Virus genome (UHGV): UHGV-1374678
DNA from: a virus
DNA length: 64,000 nucleotides
Direction: 5' to 3' (one strand)
How positions within the stretch are numbered: the first letter of the stretch is position 1; every line of letters begins with the position of its first letter. Below, piece by piece: positions 23,211-62,071 of this stretch. The position numbers and the translations under genes were made by a program. The notes below the pieces were generated by a model, which made no database searches, was not told the DNA's origin, and saw only the letters and a list, made by a program, of their open reading frames with translations.

Positions 23211-24422
23211 TTACGACGTAATTTCCATCAAAAAATTGCATTCATTATTTTGAACTTTACATTTAATATTCAACAATTTTGTGAGATAACTTGAATTGTT
23301 ACCAAGCTTTATTTTTATTTCATTTATTTTTAATTGTTCTTTCCAAACAACGTAATCATTTGATGTAAAATCAACACCATCAATTTCGCATGACCAAACA
23401 GGAGAGAAATCTTCTAAAGTATCTGTTATATCTGTATTTGAACTGTCATAGGCATGAACAGACAGAGTTCTATAACTTCCATTATTTTTTATTTGGTTAG
23501 TAGAGCATAGAATTTTGTAGGAAATGTCTGGAATCGTGGATGCAGTGTCTTTTTCTGGAATGATACTCTGAGAATAATAGTCAGCATACATTTCGTGTGT
23601 TTCCAAATTAACATAATCCGTCTCTCGGTTAAATACATCCTGGTCTAATGTAATCCTAATAATCCCCAATGGCTTTGTTCTTTCAATTTTACTTACCTGC
23701 CAAGCAAGAGGTTCTTCACAAAATACATCCATTAAAATTCTTTGATTGTCTTTTCTTCCATTTTTATATCTTATTTTTTCTGTAATAGGATTAATTGGAA
23801 GCCATACTTTCTGAATATCATCAGGTGTTGTAAAGTAATTGTCCGTCCAACGTCCAGACGTATAGTTATTCATTGCACGAGAAACACACCACATTTGCCT
23901 TTTAATTCTTGAAGTTCCAGTGTCTTCAATCCACTGCAAAAAATAATCACAAGGAAGAATAAAATACTTAATAAATTGGTTTCCTTTTTCTCTCCAACAA
24001 ATTAACCATTTTTCATATACACCTTTATCATTTGGAATATCTATCCACATTCCAATTGGGAATTTAACGCCATAACGATTAGCAACATCAGTCTGATAAT
24101 AATATAAAGAATCACCCTCTAAAAAAGTATCCTTCTGACTTGGACGAAACATCAAGTGGTATGACACTTGGTCTTTAGATATCGAACCATATTCAGACAC
24201 AATAAATTTTGCGTCGATTGGTGTTTTTGTTGTATTTTCATACATCATATTTGAAGCTAGTTCTGGATGATCATCGTGAAAATAATCATAAATATAACAA
24301 CGTTTTGACTGCGGATCATTCCACCAAGTTTCTTCCATTGCATAATCTGATATCTCTTTAATTTGTTGTCCGACTGTTCCATAATGTGCATATCTTTTTT
24401 TCATATCAGCAAAAGAAGGCAT
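23211..24422 (-). CDS. hypothetical 403-aa structural protein (sheath- or tail-like?)
   Basis: ORF. Confidence 0.45.
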   Translation of the reverse strand: MPSFADMKKRYAHYGTVGQQIKEISDYAMEETWWNDPQSKRCYIYDYFHDDHPELASNMMYENTTKTPIDAKFIVSEYGSISKDQVSYHLMFRPSQKDTFLEGDSLYYYQTDVANRYGVKFPIGMWIDIPNDKGVYEKWLICWREKGNQFIKYFILPCDYFLQWIEDTGTSRIKRQMWCVSRAMNNYTSGRWTDNYFTTPDDIQKVWLPINPITEKIRYKNGRKDNQRILMDVFCEEPLAWQVSKIERTKPLGIIRITLDQDVFNRETDYVNLETHEMYADYYSQSIIPEKDTASTIPDISYKILCSTNQIKNNGSYRTLSVHAYDSSNTDITDTLEDFSPVWSCEIDGVDFTSNDYVVWKEQLKINEIKIKLGNNSSYLTKLLNIKCKVQNNECNFLMEITS

Positions 24423-36052: not shown

Positions 36053-36380
36053 GTGTATATCCCATTATCTCCAACCTCCTTATATAACCTAGCGAACAAT
36101 AATTTAAAAGAGCAGAAGAGTGGCGAGGTTAGAATAACCACATACAAACTGGTAGCTACTCCAAGTTTGCTTCTACTCTTGAATAGTCACGTCCCACCGA
36201 CAGAACAACAAACGCCAAATCGTTTATGACTACATTTATTTATTCTCTAAATTCTAAAAATCCACTTGTAAAAATTGAGAGTCTTTGTATTACTTTTAAC
36301 TCTTTTATAAAACGCTGTGGCAAGTTTTATCTTTATAGTTCTTCTTTATTTGTGGATCGAAGCAAATCCTTACATCCTTA

Positions 36381-40388: not shown

Positions 40389-40469
40389 CTAAGCAACTTC
40401 TTTCAAATAACTTATATAACTTAACAATACTTATTTATTCTCCACACAACAATGCAGAAAAATATAAAG

Positions 40470-42127: not shown

Positions 42128-43612
42128 TTAAATTCCCATACTACTTAAAGTATCTATACTGCTTAATCTCTGTATCTCTATATCATGCAGCTTTTTAAAG
42201 TTATCAAATCTATCATTGCATTTTTTTATATCGAAACTCTTTAAATCATCTGAAATATTCATTATTAGAAAAGCACTATATAAATCTCTTTGAATCTTTA
42301 CATCGTTTAAATCATTCCATCTCTGTGACAGGGATTTCTTGTGATATTCTCCTGTCATATGATTGAATTGACTCGCTTTTGCACTAAATGTATCAATCTC
42401 GATGAGCTTTTCTCCAAAATAACCTAACTTCCTATTTATAATAGTTAACAACATGCTTGGCGCTTTATTTGCTAAAGATTTACCAAAACGTTTCTTTCTT
42501 TTAAATCTTCCTTTATCATTTTTCTCGGTATTTTTAGCACGTTTTTGAAGTCCCGCAAAATTCATTTTTTCAACATATATTTTGTTTCCAAGGGATACAA
42601 TATAATTTGACAGACATTCGTGTTGATATTTCCGTACATCTGCTTGTTTTCTATATAATTCCTTCAGTTGATTTTGATATTTTACATAATGATTTGATTT
42701 ATTCCAAAAAACTTTTTTACTTCCTTGTTTTCTGACTGTTCCATCTTCATTATAATTTTCCAAATTGGTAGCTCGTCTACTGCGATCCATTTTTCTCAAT
42801 AAACGATGCTTTTCATCTTCAATATTCTGCACTTTATCAGCAAGAATAAGAAGTTTAACATCTGTATTGCTAGAAATTGCAATGGTGGAAGTGCCAATGT
42901 CTAAACCAACATCACCTTCACCTAAAAAGTGTTTGATTTTGCCGGTTTCTTTATTAAATTTTATTGGTTGAGTTCCCTTAAAAACTACTTGGACATAGAA
43001 TTTATATTTGTTACGAACAAATTTTCTAACGATGCGACAATAAGAAATTTCAGATTGCATTGCCTGGTATTCATACGGATTGTTCCAGTCAATAACAACT
43101 GGAATATTTAATCCGTTCCATATCAGATGTTCATTTACAAAACGAATACCAGTATAATTAGATTTTCCTTCTAATGAATTCATATCTCCGTATTTCTTAT
43201 AATAAACTCGTTTACCATTTCCATAAAATAGCTTATCATAAGACTTCCAGAGAGTAGTAGCAATCTTCTGAGCAGTAAAAGAATCAATATTTTTCTTAAA
43301 ATGTTTTTGCATTTCTTTTACATCGGCGTGAAGTGAATATTCGGTCAAACCGTATTCTTTTCGCATCTGACCAATATGTTTCCAAATCGGTTTATCAGAT
43401 TTTTTATTTCCAGTTAACATTGACATTAGACTTCTATATTTCTTCGTTTTAATCATTTCTTTGTATCTCTTTTGAGAAACGGTCACTAAAGAATTATAAA
43501 TTTTTCTTCCAATTTCAAAACGTTTATTCAAAATATCTTCTTGATATTTTTCTGTTCTTAATGGAAACTGAACTACGAAATTTGCCATAATATTCACCTT
43601 TCTGTTTGACAT
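42128..43612 (-). CDS. tnpB: TnpB-like RNA-guided nuclease (IS605 OrfB family, zinc-finger-less variant)
   Basis: RuvC-I GLDIGTSTIAISSN, RuvC-II IYVEKMNFAGLQ, C-terminal RDLYSAFLI; no CxxC pairs. Confidence 0.6.
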   Translation of the reverse strand: MSNRKVNIMANFVVQFPLRTEKYQEDILNKRFEIGRKIYNSLVTVSQKRYKEMIKTKKYRSLMSMLTGNKKSDKPIWKHIGQMRKEYGLTEYSLHADVKEMQKHFKKNIDSFTAQKIATTLWKSYDKLFYGNGKRVYYKKYGDMNSLEGKSNYTGIRFVNEHLIWNGLNIPVVIDWNNPYEYQAMQSEISYCRIVRKFVRNKYKFYVQVVFKGTQPIKFNKETGKIKHFLGEGDVGLDIGTSTIAISSNTDVKLLILADKVQNIEDEKHRLLRKMDRSRRATNLENYNEDGTVRKQGSKKVFWNKSNHYVKYQNQLKELYRKQADVRKYQHECLSNYIVSLGNKIYVEKMNFAGLQKRAKNTEKNDKGRFKRKKRFGKSLANKAPSMLLTIINRKLGYFGEKLIEIDTFSAKASQFNHMTGEYHKKSLSQRWNDLNDVKIQRDLYSAFLIMNISDDLKSFDIKKCNDRFDNFKKLHDIEIQRLSSIDTLSSMGI

Positions 43613-47075: not shown

Positions 47076-47255
47076 TCAAAATGTGTTGAAATATACTCAA
47101 ACACATCGAGAAATTGAAGTCCTTGCGGATACTTCTTACTGCTTCAATGTGTATGCTTTGGCGATTATAAACAATACGCTACTCACAAGTTCTTGTACAC
47201 TCCACAGTCGTAAATTCCTGCGATAGCCCGCAGTACATACTTACGTTTGCTTTCA

Positions 47256-49032: not shown

Positions 49033-49203
49033 GAGTATATTTTAACACATTTAATCACTATCGGCAATGATTTTGATTACTTAAAGTTTCCTCCTTCATT
49101 ATACATTTTGATCATTAACTCTGTTTCTTCTGACGTATAAATTCTTTTTTGACTCATTTGTTATCCCCTATTATTAATCCTTTCGTATTTCTATTTATTC
49201 TCC

Positions 49204-51305: not shown

Positions 51306-54116
51306 TTATTCACAGATGAAGTTGGCTAAAAACCTATCTTTATCAACTTTATATAGTAAATTTAATATTTTTCTTGTGTATTTTTCGGGATTGTATGTGC
51401 GTTTTTTTGAAGCCCCCGTTTCCGAGCTGATACCAAGAGCAAGTTCAATTAATCGATTAATTGTGACAATATTTCTAATTTTTATCTTAGATAATTCATT
51501 TAATACATTTTCGTTTTCTTTTTTTAGAAATTCAGCGAATTCATCATTATTCATTGTATTCTTTATTTTTGCTTCTTTAATACTGGAATCGTATTCCTCA
51601 ATAACTCTCATAATCTTTGTCATTTGTCTACGATTAGTTTCGCCCTTCATTTTAATAAAGAATTTCGATGTATCCACAGTTTCAGAAGTAGAAGCATTTT
51701 GAATTTTGTCTAACCAATCTTCCAACCAATTCATTGGACAAATCAATTCAGGATTTATACGACTCTTTAATTTATCTTTCTTTTCAGAAATTTCTTCTTG
51801 AGGTAGCTCTTTGCCATCTTTTGTATATTTTATTTCTCTGGTGTACTTCATAAATTCAGGAAAATCATATTTTATTTTTTTATCTTTCCCATTTTTTGTC
51901 GTGCCACAAATCTTTGTGATTTTCATAGATGGCAATTTACTAATACGATCAATTTCTTTATTCCCATCAATTTCATACTCACGTTTACACCCATCTATAA
52001 TTACTTGAGCAAGAACAGATAAAATAATAAAATTATCATAAAGTTCTTTTAGTTTGTACATATTCGGATTATCTTTTTTTAACTCTGTCCAATAGTATGT
52101 CATTGCTAATTGAGCCAAATTGCTAGAATAGCCAATCCCCATTCTAGATTTGGAAAATTTATTATCCATTGCAGCATAGTCTTTTTTCGTATTACTGTAA
52201 GTAATTCCAGATTCTTTTAATGCATTTACAATTGTAAAAAATTCTCTATAACAACGTTTTGCACATTTTACCATTGTTTTCTGATTGGTTACTAACATAA
52301 AATCCGAATCCTCATCCATCCCATTGGCACGATCCTGGATATCTGTATGAATACAATTTATTGCAATTATATTTTTACTAAATGGAAAATATTCTTTCAT
52401 TTCTTTTGAATATACATTATGTAGATAACAAATATTATTCGGAGAATTATGTGGATTTCTGAAGGCTGCTAAGTACTCACCATCTTCAAAACGTTCCGTA
52501 TAACATTGAATTGCATCAGATTCTTGAGAAAAAGTTGGATCATTTTCATAATTTTCTCCAACTGAATATAATAGAAGAGCATACGGATTTCCGCAAACTG
52601 TAAGGTTATCACCGTTTACGATTATCTTTCCTTTTCTCATTCGAAATACATATTGCTTTATAATTTCCTTTTTTTCATTTCTAAAAAATTTACTGTCTGC
52701 AAATTTCTTATTTTGCGAGTATAAATCCGCAAGCATTTCATAATGATTAACTTCATTTGCATTTTTTCTAAGAAATTTTTCAAATTCGTCGTTATCTACT
52801 TTTAATAATTCTATATAGTCTATAGTTGTTTGAGCAATCTCTTTTACATCTTCTGAAGAACATGGAAGAGTGTTAATCATTTGATAGCTTAATTGTTGAT
52901 AATTACCTAATTTACTAGGGTGATCTGTTTTAACTATTCCCCATATATTATTATCAGCACGAATACGATCACACCAATAGTCATAAGCTTCAGATAAAGT
53001 ATTTCCCATTAAATTAGAGAATTTCTTCCATTTAATAGCATTGTCTGTAGTGATCATCTTTATATTTTTTACATAATGCCAATTTCCAAACATATCTTGA
53101 ATTTGATATGTCTCATAGTCATATCCATTAATTTTACACCAATTTTTGAAAAATTTTTGGATATAACTTTTAAATGCACAAGTTTTAAACATATGGTTTC
53201 TTAATAATACCATTCCGTTAATATAATCGGGAAGTGCAAGATATGATTGGTCAGCTTCAATTAAAGCCATTCCATCCCATAATGTATTTTTTACTTCCCT
53301 TTTTTCTTCAACAACAACACATTTTTTTCGTGGCTCTTTTATCTTAACTCTTTTCCCCGTTACTTCATCCTTCTTTTTAACTTCAACAATATATTCTTCT
53401 GCTTTAACAACTTTTGTCATCGTTTCAAAAAAAGAATCTTGATCTTTCAGAATTAAAATATTTTCAACCGGAATATTAATTGTTCCAACTATAGTAGAAG
53501 TAGTAAGCGGAGCGTAAGCAGACATCTCAACAATTTTAGCATTGTCATGTTCCATTTTTTTACCAAGTCCAATTGTTAGCCAATCATAAGCAATATCATA
53601 TAATTTACTATTTATAAACATTACTTGTCCAAGTTTTGCTTTTGCACTTGTCCGGAAAAGCATTTCATAATGAATTGTTTCCTGTTTTTTAATGTCTCCA
53701 TTTTTATTTTTCCATTTATAAGTTACGTCTACACCGTTCTCATAAAAAAATTCTCTAATTTCATCACGATTTCTTTCATAATATAATTCTTTATTATTTT
53801 CTACTTTCTCCAGAACATTGATAAGTACTTCTTTTTCTGAATCAGAAGTGGCTTCTTTTAATAATTTTTCTATACGCTCTTTTTCATTTTCATATGATCT
53901 ACTGCCAAACTCATAGTCTAAACATATTATATCTCTAGTACTTTCATTCTTTGTTCCTTTTTTGTAAACATTCAATCCATTTTTTTGAAGAAAAAAACTG
54001 AACAAGCTATTATTTAACATGGCTTCTTTATAAGTGAAATAATCTCTTGTACCTAAGTTTACATCGTACAACATCCCTGCATTTATATTTTTTACCTTAA
54101 TTCCAAATTCGCTCAT
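51306..54116 (-). CDS. large hypothetical protein (936 aa)
   Basis: Long clean ORF with no recognisable Walker or polymerase motifs. Confidence 0.55.
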   Translation of the reverse strand: MSEFGIKVKNINAGMLYDVNLGTRDYFTYKEAMLNNSLFSFFLQKNGLNVYKKGTKNESTRDIICLDYEFGSRSYENEKERIEKLLKEATSDSEKEVLINVLEKVENNKELYYERNRDEIREFFYENGVDVTYKWKNKNGDIKKQETIHYEMLFRTSAKAKLGQVMFINSKLYDIAYDWLTIGLGKKMEHDNAKIVEMSAYAPLTTSTIVGTINIPVENILILKDQDSFFETMTKVVKAEEYIVEVKKKDEVTGKRVKIKEPRKKCVVVEEKREVKNTLWDGMALIEADQSYLALPDYINGMVLLRNHMFKTCAFKSYIQKFFKNWCKINGYDYETYQIQDMFGNWHYVKNIKMITTDNAIKWKKFSNLMGNTLSEAYDYWCDRIRADNNIWGIVKTDHPSKLGNYQQLSYQMINTLPCSSEDVKEIAQTTIDYIELLKVDNDEFEKFLRKNANEVNHYEMLADLYSQNKKFADSKFFRNEKKEIIKQYVFRMRKGKIIVNGDNLTVCGNPYALLLYSVGENYENDPTFSQESDAIQCYTERFEDGEYLAAFRNPHNSPNNICYLHNVYSKEMKEYFPFSKNIIAINCIHTDIQDRANGMDEDSDFMLVTNQKTMVKCAKRCYREFFTIVNALKESGITYSNTKKDYAAMDNKFSKSRMGIGYSSNLAQLAMTYYWTELKKDNPNMYKLKELYDNFIILSVLAQVIIDGCKREYEIDGNKEIDRISKLPSMKITKICGTTKNGKDKKIKYDFPEFMKYTREIKYTKDGKELPQEEISEKKDKLKSRINPELICPMNWLEDWLDKIQNASTSETVDTSKFFIKMKGETNRRQMTKIMRVIEEYDSSIKEAKIKNTMNNDEFAEFLKKENENVLNELSKIKIRNIVTINRLIELALGISSETGASKKRTYNPEKYTRKILNLLYKVDKDRFLANFICE

Positions 54117-58392: not shown

Positions 58393-58527
58393 TTCTTTTC
58401 CTCCATAAGTGTAATTTAAACTGAACTAATTACTATTAGCTCTCTATATATATTCTTTTGTAAATAAAATGAAAATTAAAACGATTTATTTTGATAATGA
58501 TATTAAGAAGTTGTAAAATGAAATTTT

Positions 58528-58696
58528 GAAAAATACTGCATACTCTCACTATAATATATATTATATAGTGATACTTTGCAGTATTTTTATTTGAGAGTAT
58601 TTTAAACCTTGAAATTACTGCATTTGTTGATGGTTTTAAAAATCATGCAGTTTCTCACTATAATATAATATATATAGTGAGGGTTTGCATGATTTT
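58528..58696. repeat. two 60-bp imperfect palindromes (58528-58587 and 58637-58696); candidate origin or operator
   Basis: Outer arms AAAAATACTGCA / AAAAATCATGCA, inner arms TCACTATA / CTCACTATA, AT-rich centre; a third A(A/T)TACTGCAT half-site at 58613. Confidence 0.6.
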
Positions 58697-58904
58697 TGGA
58701 ATTATATTCATTTTCTATTGAGTTTATGGGCTTTTGGCAATAATTATTTTACTTAAATAAAACTCTATCAAAATTAATGTTTACATCTTTGAAATGTTGA
58801 GTGACAACGAAACATTGCAAAGATAAAATGTTTGCAAACCTACTGGATTTGCGAACATTTTGAACGCCATAGGCGATTACATTACTCTTCAGTATTTTAT
58901 AATT

Positions 58905-59192
58905 TTATCTTTCTTCATTCTCTTTTCTATAGAAATTACATGGTACAGTTCCAAAAGTTTCTGTTGTAATAAGTTTAAATTTCATAATTTTCATTTCTCT
59001 TTTATTTTTAATCTTTGCTATGGTTAGAGGATAGTTATGCAAGATGAATAATTCGTTAGACAATATATTATTCTCATGTTTTTCAAAACAATTTATTAAA
59101 CTTATTATGAAATTTATTTTTGATTTTTCTTTCAATATACAAAGCGTTACAGTAAAATCTTTGTCTGGTTTAAAAGTACCCCGGTATGACAT
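58905..59192 (-). CDS. hypothetical small protein
   Basis: ORF. Confidence 0.35.
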   Translation of the reverse strand: MSYRGTFKPDKDFTVTLCILKEKSKINFIISLINCFEKHENNILSNELFILHNYPLTIAKIKNKREMKIMKFKLITTETFGTVPCNFYRKENEER

Positions 59193-59415
59193 ATGTGGAC
59201 TGTTTCTGATATGGCAATCTGATGGGCTATGATAAAGAAATGGATGCTAAAATTAATTTTATAGTGGGTGGTGTAAAGTTGTTAGGGTAGAAGAGTAAGT
59301 TCTAAAATTGAGTGGATTTTTATTGATTTAAGCAAGTGGTTGACTAAAACACATAATTTTATCATAAAAATAAGACAGGATTAATTTCCTGCCTTATAAA
59401 ATATTTTATTTATTG

Positions 59416-60531: not shown

Positions 60532-60721
60532 AACTGATTCTCCTCTGATTTTTATTTGGTGTATATTTACTTATTCTCATATGCCGTTTGTTATACTTTT
60601 TGATATTAATTTTGAGCTAGAATCCATTTTTATATGCTCAGTGGTAAATTGTGTATCTGAGATACTATAAGCTGAAATTGAGTCGATTTTTATGTCATAA
60701 GTAAGCTAATCCAGAAAATGC

Positions 60722-61297
60722 TTATAAGTCAAAGGTTTTCTGCATGATGTAGTTATATGGTTCTTCATAATACAAATCTCTTGCAGTCTGCATGAATTTT
60801 TGAACGGCACATCCATAGTCTTCCATGGGATTGGATAATATCTTTTTAATAACATCTGCATCCATTTCTTCTGTGAATAAATGATTCGCAGGAGATCCCT
60901 GCCCATCTTCATTACAAAATCCTTTTACTTTGCCGGTACCTTTGAGATCCAAGATAGTTAGTGCCTTGAATCCATACATGAGATTTATAATGATTGAAAT
61001 TGATTTTCCTCTGTAAGGAACGTTAATTGATCCGTGCATAAGTTTGTGAGTGTCATGATGAATGAAGATATATCCCGCAATTGTTTTATAAATGTCATAA
61101 GACCCATTTACCATATAAATGAAAGCATTGATATAGCATACATTTGATGATGTTCTGGAAAGTGTTTGAAAGAACTCATAATCCTTTTCTGTATATGTTT
61201 TGTCTGGAATGTCTCCGTAGCGGACTTTTACTATGTCTTTTGGATGATTTGCCCAGGAAGGAAATTCTGTTAATATCTGTTCTTTTGTCAAACGCAT
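60722..61297 (-). CDS. hypothetical protein
   Basis: ORF. Confidence 0.45.
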   Translation of the reverse strand: MRLTKEQILTEFPSWANHPKDIVKVRYGDIPDKTYTEKDYEFFQTLSRTSSNVCYINAFIYMVNGSYDIYKTIAGYIFIHHDTHKLMHGSINVPYRGKSISIIINLMYGFKALTILDLKGTGKVKGFCNEDGQGSPANHLFTEEMDADVIKKILSNPMEDYGCAVQKFMQTARDLYYEEPYNYIMQKTFDL

Positions 61298-61439
61298 TTT
61301 ATAACTCCTTTTGTTTTATATTTGATTTATTTAACTAATAAAAATTGACGGTGGAAGATTGGCAGTTGGAATAGACAATATTATTATTCTCCAGAATAGA
61401 AACATAAAGATTGTATGTTTTGAATTGGCATCAGTAGAG

Positions 61440-61930
61440 TTTAAATAATTATTTTGAAGGTAGATTTGATTTTTATGAATGGTATGAGGATTTATTTGTT
61501 TAATTACTAAAATGCGAAATTGGTGTGATTTTTGATGATTTGGATTTGTTATTGAGTGACTGGGTGTAGATTTGTTACACAATTTATACGATGAAAATCC
61601 GGTCGATTTTTGAAAATTTTGCATGAAAAATATGGTATCGAAAAAATGTGTTTTATATATAAGAAAATTTTAAATCAAAGTAGAGTTTCTGATAATTCTG
61701 ATGTTCTAAATTTGGATTTTACAGGGTTAATTTTTGGCGTAGTTAAAGGGATTTTACGATAAGGGGTACGATAAGGAATTTTGGTTAGGTGATGGTTGAT
61801 TTTTGGCTTGGTTGTGGGATTTTTTAAGGATTGATATTGAGGAGGAAATTTGATGAATTTTTTTGGATTGGAGGAGATGGGAGAGGAAAGAGGGAAGAGG
61901 GTGATCATGAATTTGTTAGGGGTGATTTTG
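61440..61930 (+). repeat. C-depleted GT-rich tract with GATTTTT-type iteron-like repeats and a 36-nt polypurine run
   Basis: Several 60-nt lines have 0-3 C on the plus strand; ggaggagatgggagaggaaagagggaagagggtga; acgataagg repeated twice. Confidence 0.55.
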
Positions 61931-62071
61931 AACTTAGTGTGTGATTTGAACAGCTATAGGGCTGTGAATGAAAAAATGTTACTTCCTAGTTTTTTCCTCC
62001 CCCGCATTTTTTATTGCACGTCAAAAAACCCGTACTTTTGTTATTTTTGCGGATTTTTAGTAGTACTTTGA
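61853..62071 (+). CDS. possible small hydrophobic protein
   Basis: GAGGAGG RBS 7 nt before ATG; could equally be a composition artefact. Confidence 0.25.
   Translation: MNFFGLEEMGEERGKRVIMNLLGVILNLVCDLNSYRAVNEKMLLPSFFLPRIFYCTSKNPYFCYFCGFLVVL

Follow-up and report, generated by a model that had tools for sequence, protein, structure and literature searches.

The window analyzed here is a stretch of 64,000 nucleotides (nt) from the UHGV virus genome UHGV-1374678, a tailed phage that encodes a tape measure protein, portal, terminase, exonuclease, and PhoH, together with three tRNAs and a RAGATH-18 RNA, and whose genes in the window lie nearly all on the minus strand. By its portal protein, the phage affiliates with the large Firmicutes siphoviruses (the Tsamsa-like and SPbeta-like phages, the 949 group, and large Clostridioides and Enterococcus phages). 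Within a 1.17-kb gap between genes, the window contains a tract whose plus strand is strongly depleted of C, and it is this tract that we describe. One flank of the gap is formed by a minus-strand gene of unknown function that encodes 191 amino acids (aa); the other is formed by genes for a small RHH-like protein and for a Cro/CI-type HTH protein, also on the minus strand. A UvrD-type helicase gene and other replication-module genes lie beside the tract as well. Its position in the regulatory region agrees with an earlier account drawn from the letters alone (the sequence-only reading), which had placed the tract next to a regulator cluster.

From 61440 to 61930, the plus strand is composed of 29.9% A, 4.3% C (21 of 491 positions), 26.1% G, and 39.7% T; the sequence-only reading was right about the depletion and slightly low in its figure (about 3% C). 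In a sliding-window analysis of base composition (490-nt windows across the 64 kb; mean C content of 18.1%, standard deviation of 3.3%), the window with the lowest C content is this tract, the next lowest having 8.0%, and the maximum G content for windows of this size (27.3%, at 61477) also falls within it. Two intervals of the plus strand, 61440–61499 and 61808–61905, hold no C at all, in keeping with the nearly C-free lines that had been pointed out. The biased stretch extends slightly beyond these limits (61330–61980, with about 5.5% C on the plus strand). GC skew in the tract reaches +0.84, opposite to the skew of the surrounding minus-strand genes, and its G+C content (25 to 37%) is not below the genome average.

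This composition is shared by every related locus in which it could be assessed. We retrieved 17 loci through the flanking protein and 49 further viral contigs (23 to 217 kb) through a pattern describing the conserved core at the distal end of the tract, GAGTTGGTGTGT-N(40-70)-TACCCCC; all 49 matches have a spacing of exactly 55 nt. A C-poor, G-rich tract of 350 to 600 nt occurs in the same place and polarity in each of the 17 loci with upstream sequence, and the 600 nt upstream of the core contain 3 to 10% C and 18 to 30% G in all 49 contigs. In total, 66 of 66 related loci with upstream sequence (L001–L017 and L022–L070) carry a tract of the same polarity, ranging from 320 to 1,090 nt in length. 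The tracts of diverged lineages are essentially unalignable despite their shared composition. The sequence-only reading had suggested looking for conservation of the repeats in relatives; some motifs are indeed shared, but composition rather than sequence is what is kept. The main point, which the sequence-only reading missed, is that composition itself is conserved across a large phage family and, as described below, recurs in cultured phages.

A skew of this kind could, in principle, lack any function and represent a mutational by-product, such as cytosine deamination of a single-stranded or nontemplate strand, and the loss of C coupled with the enrichment of T-tracts on one strand is what C-to-T decay would give. 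We consider this explanation very improbable. Deamination is insufficient because G is enriched about 2-fold over background (26 to 42%). In addition, substitutions between the window and its closest relative, L002 (whose flanking protein is 95% identical), comprise 46 A↔G but only 11 T↔C changes, so that T↔C is four times rarer than A↔G even though T is the commonest base; because a higher rate of C-to-T change alone would not reduce the number of T/C differences, new C's on the plus strand are apparently removed. The tract also has sharp boundaries at conserved boxes, and its composition is kept across lineages whose tracts cannot be aligned. Divergence from L002 in the gene-proximal part of the tract (22 to 34%) is at least as high as that at third codon positions of the flanking gene (15%). 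From these observations, we infer that the composition of the tract is under selection. The residual C's follow no CpG rule, 36% of them preceding G against 29% expected, and a CpG restriction was rejected.

Protein coding on either strand was likewise rejected. Long minus-strand open reading frames (ORFs) arise in the tract because, where G is scarce, hardly any stop codon other than TAA can occur, and the two that were called, at 61331–61624 and 61675–61908, show no coding conservation, as the sequence-only reading had anticipated in treating them as artifacts. Relative to L002, the tract has 1-nt indels at three places, one 12-nt indel (which falls in the first ORF), and one 3-nt indel. In tblastn searches, the first ORF (ORF97) has 49% identity divided over two frames, and the second (ORF77) has 74% aa identity over 77 residues with L002 and elsewhere finds only low-complexity, composition-driven matches. 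The tract has no period-3 signal, and a small conserved ORF across the core was rejected on account of stop codons in other lineages. A search of the tract against Rfam gave no match at the gathering score or at an E value of ≤5, RNAalifold applied to 53 sequences of the 74-nt core yielded essentially no consensus structure on either strand, and the minimum free energy (MFE) of the tract as RNA is not better than that of shuffled sequences. There was no match to the tract in a DNA similarity search against phage records, nor any match in a protein search of the genome contigs. The core pattern finds only chance matches with the wrong spacing in representative bacterial genomes, which offer no clue to a host or prophage, and among public assemblies checked for transcript boundaries, only 4 contigs contain the flanking gene and gave no information on them.

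Table 1. Features in and around the C-depleted tract (positions in the 64,000-nt window)
Feature	Coordinates	Strand	Details
Gene for 191-aa protein of unknown function	60722..61297	-	flanks the gap
Conserved box TTATTCTC (GAGAATAA in leftward-gene sense)	61384..61391	+	gene-proximal edge of the tract; 87 nt from ATG of 191-aa gene
C-depleted, G-/T-rich tract (minus strand G-depleted), weakly phased T-tracts	61393..61944	+	C 4-5%, G about 26%
Mid-tract conserved block	61589..61663	+	three C-G-x-AAAAAT repeats (61589-61598, 61621-61631, 61638-61647), then TTTTATATATAAG
Tandem direct repeat TACGATAAGG x2	61755..61776	+	copies at 61755-61764 and 61767-61776, 12 nt start to start; holds two of the rare C's
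Purine-rich run	61870..61905	+	longest pure-purine stretch 61879-61901 (23 nt)
Conserved core, distal end of the tract	61925..62003	+	GATTTTGAACTTAGTGTGTGA (61925-61944), hairpin ACAGC-TATAGG-GCTGT (61950-61965), CCTCCCCC (61996-62003)
AT-rich center	62004..62058	.	T6 (62007-62012), weak hairpin CCGTA/TGCGG (62030-62034 / 62048-62052)
Operator-like sites	62259..62323	.	GATATC-N5-GATATC (62259-62275), two direct AATAATCATTCTCA (62293-62306, 62310-62323)
Gene for small RHH-like protein	62472..62660	-	flanks the gap
Gene for Cro/CI-type HTH protein	62772..62993	-	follows the RHH-like gene

The boundaries and internal features of the tract are listed in Table 1. In most related loci, a TATTCTC(T) box like that at its gene-proximal edge lies 22 to 40 nt from the Shine-Dalgarno sequence of whichever leftward gene adjoins. 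Across the window, TTATTCTC occurs 18 times against 7 expected, with 16 of these occurrences on the plus strand. Read on the minus strand as GAGAATA, the box is found at 61385–61391 and also at 60572–60578, 49196–49202, 40436–40442, and 36241–36247; GAGAATA(A) precedes several minus-strand gene starts by about 40 to 160 nt. At the latter four sites, it lies about 40 nt upstream of genes that have no tract. We regard the box as a candidate phage-specific promoter or RNA-processing site. A gene elsewhere in the window (51306–54116, minus strand) encodes a 936-aa protein that matches phrog_8308 and carries a DxDxD motif (MDEDSDF); it has no Pfam match and no sequence match among solved structures, and Enterocloster phage PMBT24 has a distant homologue for which the annotation reads “RNA-dependent RNA polymerase.” This protein is probably a phage-encoded two-barrel (YonO/QDE-1-like) RNA polymerase, which, if so, would account for promoter-like boxes that are not of the sigma-70 type.

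The body of the tract is enriched in (G/T)GATTTT. The window's tract contains 8 copies of GATTTT, and across 8 divergent lineages there are 25 occurrences of TGATTTT (4.9 expected) and 37 of GATTTT (12.3 expected); runs of at least four T's number 152, against 67 in mononucleotide shuffles and 103 under a first-order Markov model. The T-tracts of 15 nonredundant tracts recur with a period of 11.25 to 11.5 nt (z of about 4), and T-tracts and G's show a weak periodicity of 10.5 to 11.5 nt. The GATTTTT repeats described as iteron-like by the sequence-only reading are present, but they constitute a short T-tract motif with weak ~11-nt phasing rather than iterons. The only iteron-like repeats in the window's tract are a single 10-mer pair (ACGATAAGG), and other lineages have different pairs: the repeated acgataagg motif, which was correctly recognized and corresponds to the two copies of TACGATAAGG, is shared with L002, L003, L005, L011, and L013 and is replaced by two copies of GTCGAACTC in L001 and of TTACCGAAA in L007. 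ACGATAA occurs 7 times against 0.2 expected. Such lineage-specific paired sites suggest the involvement of a sequence-specific binding protein. In L001, the paired repeat of the tract (4520–4545 in locus coordinates, minus strand) reads as two copies of TGTCGAAC, and this GTCGAACTC/TGTCGAAC pair contains TGTCGAA, the consensus of the Spo0A box; the pair hints at sporulation-linked control in some lineages.

The mid-tract block, which also holds TTTATATAAG, is recognizable in L002, L003, L011, L013, L014, and L001 when the tracts are read by eye, and TTATATA is found in 8 of 8 lineages. Farther along, the purine-rich run lies where the sequence-only reading had located a 36-nt polypurine run, but it is interrupted by several T's, and relatives are GA-rich at this position with a different sequence and with no conserved polypurine run or mirror repeat. 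Runs of at least three G's (123, versus 106 to 120 expected) are not enriched beyond composition, and G-quadruplex motifs number 5 against about 2 expected in 16 tracts. The proposal of a triplex-prone region does not survive these comparisons, and G-quadruplex and i-motif formation were rejected along with it.

Beyond the tract, the middle of the core varies among relatives and contains small lineage-specific hairpins, after which comes the C-run. The hairpin of the AT-rich center is bordered by an A-run and a T-run, and relatives have an equivalent hairpin with such runs. Assignment of this hairpin to one strand failed, as G·U and C·A pairs are balanced (15 versus 10), and a consensus terminator scan found no terminator at the center. 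The operator-like sites lie within a G-poor, AT-rich stretch. At the equivalent place, GATATCATTTTGATATC occurs in L022, L026, L043, L045, L051, L054, L055, L060, and L062. The GATATC-N5-GATATC site (two EcoRV-type palindromes 11 bp apart) is conserved in these lineages, which otherwise differ there, and is likely an operator; in other relatives, this position is occupied by DnaA-box clusters or by promoter/operator arrays.

The gene to the left of the tract varies among relatives (the 191-aa gene, a DUF3825 gene, a Bro-N gene, and others), and several loci have a gene, complete with a terminator hairpin, inserted into a tract that is continuous in close relatives, leaving two segments of the same polarity. 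Because its neighbor changes and genes insert into it, the tract is an autonomous element that tolerates splitting. In L001, L008, L013, L017, L033, and L064, a mirror-image tract lies past the center, with a G-free and very AT-rich plus strand, and contains or abuts DnaA boxes. The window itself has a second, weaker C-poor intergenic kilobase (about 10% C) at 58393–59415, upstream of a 368-aa gene; an ORF inside it (58905–59192) has a C terminus matching the N terminus of a Bro-N-type protein of L001 (MKFKLITTETFGTVPC...), such that this region looks like a gene remnant within a degenerate tract.

On the far side of the center, most relatives have three tandem, strong sigma-70 promoters with extended −10 elements and palindromic operators, all directed away from the tract. 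Back to back with these rightward early promoters, about 23 of 49 relatives have leftward sigma-70-like promoters at +165 to +289 from the core. In L041 (and also in L031, L054, and L033), the region from +238 to +1430 contains three tandem consensus promoters (TTGACA-17-TGnTAxxxT) spaced about 90 to 100 nt from one another and all equipped with a palindromic operator. Roughly 1 kb separates them from the first rightward gene; it has no ORFs, ends just ahead of that gene in a conserved hairpin (AGGGTGGACT...AGTCTACCCTTTT), and may represent a long early noncoding transcript or leader.

In some relatives, the same side of the element is rich in DnaA boxes. Perfect TTATCCACA boxes occur 28 times in 52 kb beyond the core, compared with once in 344 kb elsewhere in the same loci, an enrichment of about 180-fold just past the tract. 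They are present in 14 of 49 loci plus the L001 group, form clusters 200 to 440 nt beyond the tract, are accompanied by TTATCAACA variants, and have the same orientation in all but one case.

A comparable element exists in a cultured phage. In the Lactococcus phage phiL47 (L087), ORFs 37 and 38 are separated by a 1.5-kb gap in which the following succeed one another: a TATTCTC box; a stretch poor in C that includes three DnaA-type boxes (15737–15780) oriented so that no C is introduced; an extreme, C-free stretch (15850–16135; 2% C, 42% G); C-run/T-run motifs, one of them (TTTTTTTCTACCCCTGTTTTTT) very similar to TTTTTTCTACCCTGCCTTTTTTG of L002; an AT-rich center; and a mirror tract (16420–16620; 2% G, 40% C). 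Read outward from the center, the DnaA boxes have the orientation that prevails in the gut phages. At 12% of the genome, the element comes after the cluster of left-end genes. Relative to the flanking genes, the polarity of the phiL47 tract is reversed from that of the gut family, so that sense read-through would be C-less. Because L001, L033, L064, and phiL47 all have a G-free mirror tract opposite the center, polarity is set relative to the center and not to the genes. The published description of phiL47 mentions only “large inter-genic regions” (PMC3888941). A second such region of this phage (23093–25272; 2.2 kb) lies at a divergent transcription switch and contains an A-rich stretch (60% A and 8% T at about 23301–23400).

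With G and C placed on opposite strands, neither strand of the tract can form G:C hairpins. As single-stranded DNA, the plus and minus strands have MFEs of only −21.1 and −15.1 kcal/mol per 551 nt, respectively, compared with −42.4 kcal/mol for the neighboring gene (60740–61290) and −80.8 kcal/mol for 63100–63650. The latter region, located between the leftward early promoters and the end of the window, folds far better than shuffled sequences (z = −6.4), has a G+C content of up to 47% and long perfect hairpins, and has no Rfam match; a structured RNA is one possibility for it, and a group of terminators and operators is another. When folded as RNA, the tract has an MFE of −21.8 kcal/mol per 551 nt in the minus sense and −88 in the plus sense (with G·U pairs allowed). 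Over 15 lineages, minus-sense RNAs range from −10 to −30 kcal/mol per 410 nt, with C/G ratios of about 4 to 11, and contain 0 to 8 start codons per 410 nt, versus 38 to 56 in the plus sense.

These properties would suit an RNA transcribed from the minus strand. Starting at an early leftward promoter, transcription would make the tract into a long G-free, C- and A-rich leader or spacer ahead of the replication and structural operon, unable to fold or, lacking a Shine-Dalgarno sequence, to start translation; such an RNA might serve as an attenuator or insulator, acting through Rho where the host has this factor and otherwise through uncoupled, RNase-resistant, or timer-like behavior. Besides the weak folding and scarce start codons of the minus-sense RNA, this explanation draws on the sense strand of the operon next to the tract, which in the gut family is always the G-free one, on the leftward promoters of about 23 of 49 relatives, on strong leftward promoters upstream of the window's HTH and RHH-like genes (a layout resembling pR-cro-tR1 of lambda), and on the extra tract segments that lie between a terminator hairpin and the next gene. 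The minus-sense RNA resembles rut sites, such as lambda tR1, in being C-rich (about 26%), G-poor (about 4 to 5%), unstructured, and untranslatable, and its placement between early regulator genes and delayed genes in the gut lineage is rut-like, too; the gut tract differs in being five to ten times longer, and in phiL47 the polarity relative to genes is reversed. Against a leader stand this reversal and the occurrence of the same kind of tract, in more extreme form, in a phage of Lactococcus, which belongs to a family, the Streptococcaceae, reported to lack Rho (PMC12360218; for Streptococcus, PMC11347177). Rho-dependent termination fits the minus-sense RNA of the gut family very well but is disfavored as a general mechanism on both of these grounds. 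Moreover, the mirror tract of L033 lies upstream of the rightward promoters and is, hence, not transcribed by them; the tract would be mostly untranscribed in the minus sense if the GAGAATA box were the operon promoter; and its length of up to 1 kb, its C-containing paired repeats, and its phasing at ~10.5 to 11.5 nt would go unexplained. We, therefore, hold a G-free leader to be doubtful.

To transcription of the opposite strand we give somewhat more weight, and yet it, too, seems improbable to us. The plus strand would yield a C-less, G/U-rich noncoding RNA, about 600 nt long, that begins near the TATTCTC box and extends to the C-run/T-run. This RNA might act as such or, by forming an R-loop with its C-rich template, open or prime a neighboring origin in the manner of ColE1 RNA II or of the R-loop origins of phage T4 and mitochondria. 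The composition boundaries coincide with a promoter-like TTGGCA-17-TATTAT (61359–61387) and with the first C-run, and in the window, L002, and phiL47 this C-run, which is able to pair with G-runs lying upstream, has a T6 after it. The excess of G over C and of T over A is in the direction expected of a nontemplate strand, several plus-strand promoter-like sites stand at the left edge of the phiL47 tract, and the mirror tract would give a second RNA converging on the same center. R-loop systems (ColE1 RNA II, T4 oriF/oriG, and the mitochondrial CSB) likewise display a strong G>C skew over several hundred bases toward a putative initiation site, and ColE1 RNA II, at about 550 nt, is similar to the tract in length. 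They differ in that the G clusters of the tract are not enriched above composition, the RNA would be rich in U-tracts, and there is no conserved structure. The G content of the tract (26 to 30%) is under the usual thresholds for R-loops, and U4 to U7 runs throughout would weaken hybrids and favor pausing or termination. Further evidence against a functional C-less RNA is that it has no Rfam match and no conserved secondary structure, that the plus-sense RNA folds no better than shuffles, that the consensus scan found no terminator, that the promoter-like matches are weak, and that the conserved box also precedes minus-strand genes without a tract and so looks sense-related rather than like a plus-strand promoter.

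The closest described object is the injection stop signal (iss) region of coliphage T5, which has not been characterized in such compositional terms. Repeat Region 3 of T5 is a conserved, untranslated region that adjoins the iss and contains DnaA boxes and many repeats and palindromes (bioRxiv 10.1101/866236); it has a fixed 52-bp spacer and is split by an inserted HNH gene (bioRxiv 10.1101/866236). In the T5 sequence (AY587007.1), the DnaA boxes lie at 9332–9462, and a 201-nt stretch just inside the end of the terminal repeat (9894–10094) has 6.5% C and 37.8% G, with GGGATTTTGGGG-type sequence. The iss region and the gut element are both untranslated and conserved, both lie near early promoters of a large siphovirus, and both contain many direct and inverted repeats and inserted genes; both also have DnaA boxes that include TTATCAACA variants, as well as a spacer of fixed length, which measures 52 bp in T5 and 55 nt in the gut element. 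The T5 stretch differs in measuring only about 200 nt and in being less pure, and the window differs in having no DnaA box. Homology with the T5 stretch could not be demonstrated, since shared 9- and 10-mers are only slightly above shuffles, and on our comparison the resemblance is one of architecture and composition only.

By this likeness, the tract may be part of a DNA entry or end-processing signal of large siphoviruses, of the kind mapped genetically in T5: a transfer pause (injection stop) or a hairpin-free patch for single-strand annealing of terminal repeats, which would separate the first-entering early module from the rest of the genome. Repeat Region 3, with its position near the injection stop, its DnaA boxes, its fixed spacer, and its C-poor 9894–10094 stretch, speaks for such a signal, as do the T5-like features of the gut family (three tandem early promoters, fixed 55-nt spacing in the core, TTATCAACA variants, and region-splitting genes) and the phiL47 element that follows a left-end gene cluster. 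We nevertheless judge it unlikely, given that the likeness to T5 is compositional, with shared 9- and 10-mers barely exceeding shuffles; that the polarity of the gut tract relative to the presumed direction of entry is opposite to that of T5; and that what the T5 region does is likewise hypothetical.

Our tentative preference, held at well short of even confidence, is for a role of the DNA itself: the tract would be a cis-acting arm of an origin-like, untranslated control region, serving as a hairpin-free platform for protein loading. The control region, which would be oriC-like in the many relatives with DnaA boxes, would sit where the early and replication gene blocks meet. G and C are segregated to opposite strands over hundreds of bases, and the duplex keeps a G+C content at or above the genome average; once the duplex was opened, whether at the adjacent AT-rich center, through an initiator such as DnaA, or through transcription, the separated strands would be unable to fold back on themselves. 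The T-rich, C-free strand would then offer T-tracts phased approximately with the helix, together with a small number of lineage-specific paired sites, and this loading or annealing platform might receive an initiator, helicase, or single-strand-binding proteins and so promote the initiation of phage DNA replication. That the tract acts on DNA, that it acts in replication, and that it does so by loading proteins are each steps that we infer. A DNA-level role is placed first because polarity follows the center, because DnaA boxes are embedded so as to read outward, and because of the near-helical periodicity and lineage-specific paired sites; the paired 9- and 10-mers and the ~11-nt phasing of T-tracts point to protein-DNA contacts. 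Further support comes from the unique, conserved, and constrained composition, the weak folding of both strands, the DnaA boxes just past the core in relatives, the independence of the tract from its neighboring gene, and its place beside replication-module genes. Like oriC-type, phage, and plasmid origins, the element is noncoding and lies beside replication genes, with short direct repeats, helical phasing, and, in relatives, DnaA-box clusters near an AT-rich center.

A number of observations weigh against an origin-like DNA arm. There is no DnaA box in the window from 60880 to 64000, and only about 30% of relatives have them, so that the origin suggested by the sequence-only reading is made plausible by the DnaA-box clusters of relatives and not by any in the window's own region. 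Unlike oriC-type and plasmid origins, the gut tract has neither an iteron nor a DnaA-trio array: direct repeats of 17 to 22 bp in at least three copies are absent, with one 10-mer pair and 6- to 7-mers only, and the longest WAR or RAW triplet runs are not above shuffles. Not being AT-rich, the tract is not itself an unwinding element, and no Rep-type initiator was recognized among its neighbor genes. Curvature predicted with a wedge model is moderately raised, locally reaching the 90th to 99th percentile, but its maximum in the window lies elsewhere and the tract is not compact from one end to the other, so that any intrinsic curvature would be modest. The phiL47 element is flanked by convergent gene clusters and lies some 20 kb or more away from the genes annotated for replication, and for the comparable T5 region Davison rejects a function as an origin (bioRxiv 10.1101/866236). 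The leftward operon next to the tract in the gut family invariably has the G-free strand as its sense strand, and this link, along with terminator-like signals at the end of the tract, fits RNA-level models equally well. We know of no described origin that excludes one base from one strand over 0.3 to 1 kb. Strand-asymmetric, orientation-dependent composition beside an initiation site is known from eukaryotic origins (the A/T-tracts of fission yeast ars elements and the OGRE/G4 motifs of metazoans); the likeness is an analogy of principle only, these origins belonging to another domain of life with other machinery and G4 being unsupported in the tract.

All of the mechanisms proposed for the tract rest on sequence analysis. 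Ordered by the weight that we give them, the DNA-level role comes first, followed by the C-less RNA or R-loop, the entry signal, the G-free leader, and, last, the mutational by-product, with the remainder left to something else. A broader conjecture, to which we attach only limited credence, is that G/C segregation over 0.3 to 1 kb constitutes an unrecognized class of cis-acting signal in large siphoviruses (those of gut Firmicutes, the 949 group of Lactococcus phages, and T5-like phages), which, together with DnaA boxes, would mark the site where the incoming or replicating genome is held, opened, or annealed. Such a signal might be the physical basis of a T5-type injection stop (the boundary of first-step transfer) or of origin licensing. 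No element defined by the near exclusion of one base from one strand over 0.3 to 1 kb was found in Rfam, in the phage records searched, or in the literature consulted.

Two other features of the window lie apart from the tract: the RAGATH-18 RNA (47136–47208, minus strand), which scores 75.5 bits against a gathering score of 44.9, and a transposase-like gene (phrog_506; 42128–43612, minus strand) situated within the replication/nucleotide-metabolism block.

What selection appears to preserve here, across hundreds of bases, is the composition of a strand and not its sequence; this holds for over 60 uncultured gut phages and for cultured Lactococcus phages, and T5 has a shorter counterpart. A mechanism able to read “no C on this strand” is thereby implied, a property that defines no bacterial or phage element described so far. 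The element occupies the principal control point of the genome, where early promoters, DnaA boxes, and replication genes come together. It can be tested directly in phiL47, phage 949, and T5, all of which can be cultivated and engineered, and its simple compositional signature offers a means of locating control regions in uncultured phage genomes. If the element is part of origin function or of the control of genome entry, it would provide a handle on how large siphoviruses start replication via host DnaA and may bear on the decades-old question of the T5 DNA transfer stop.

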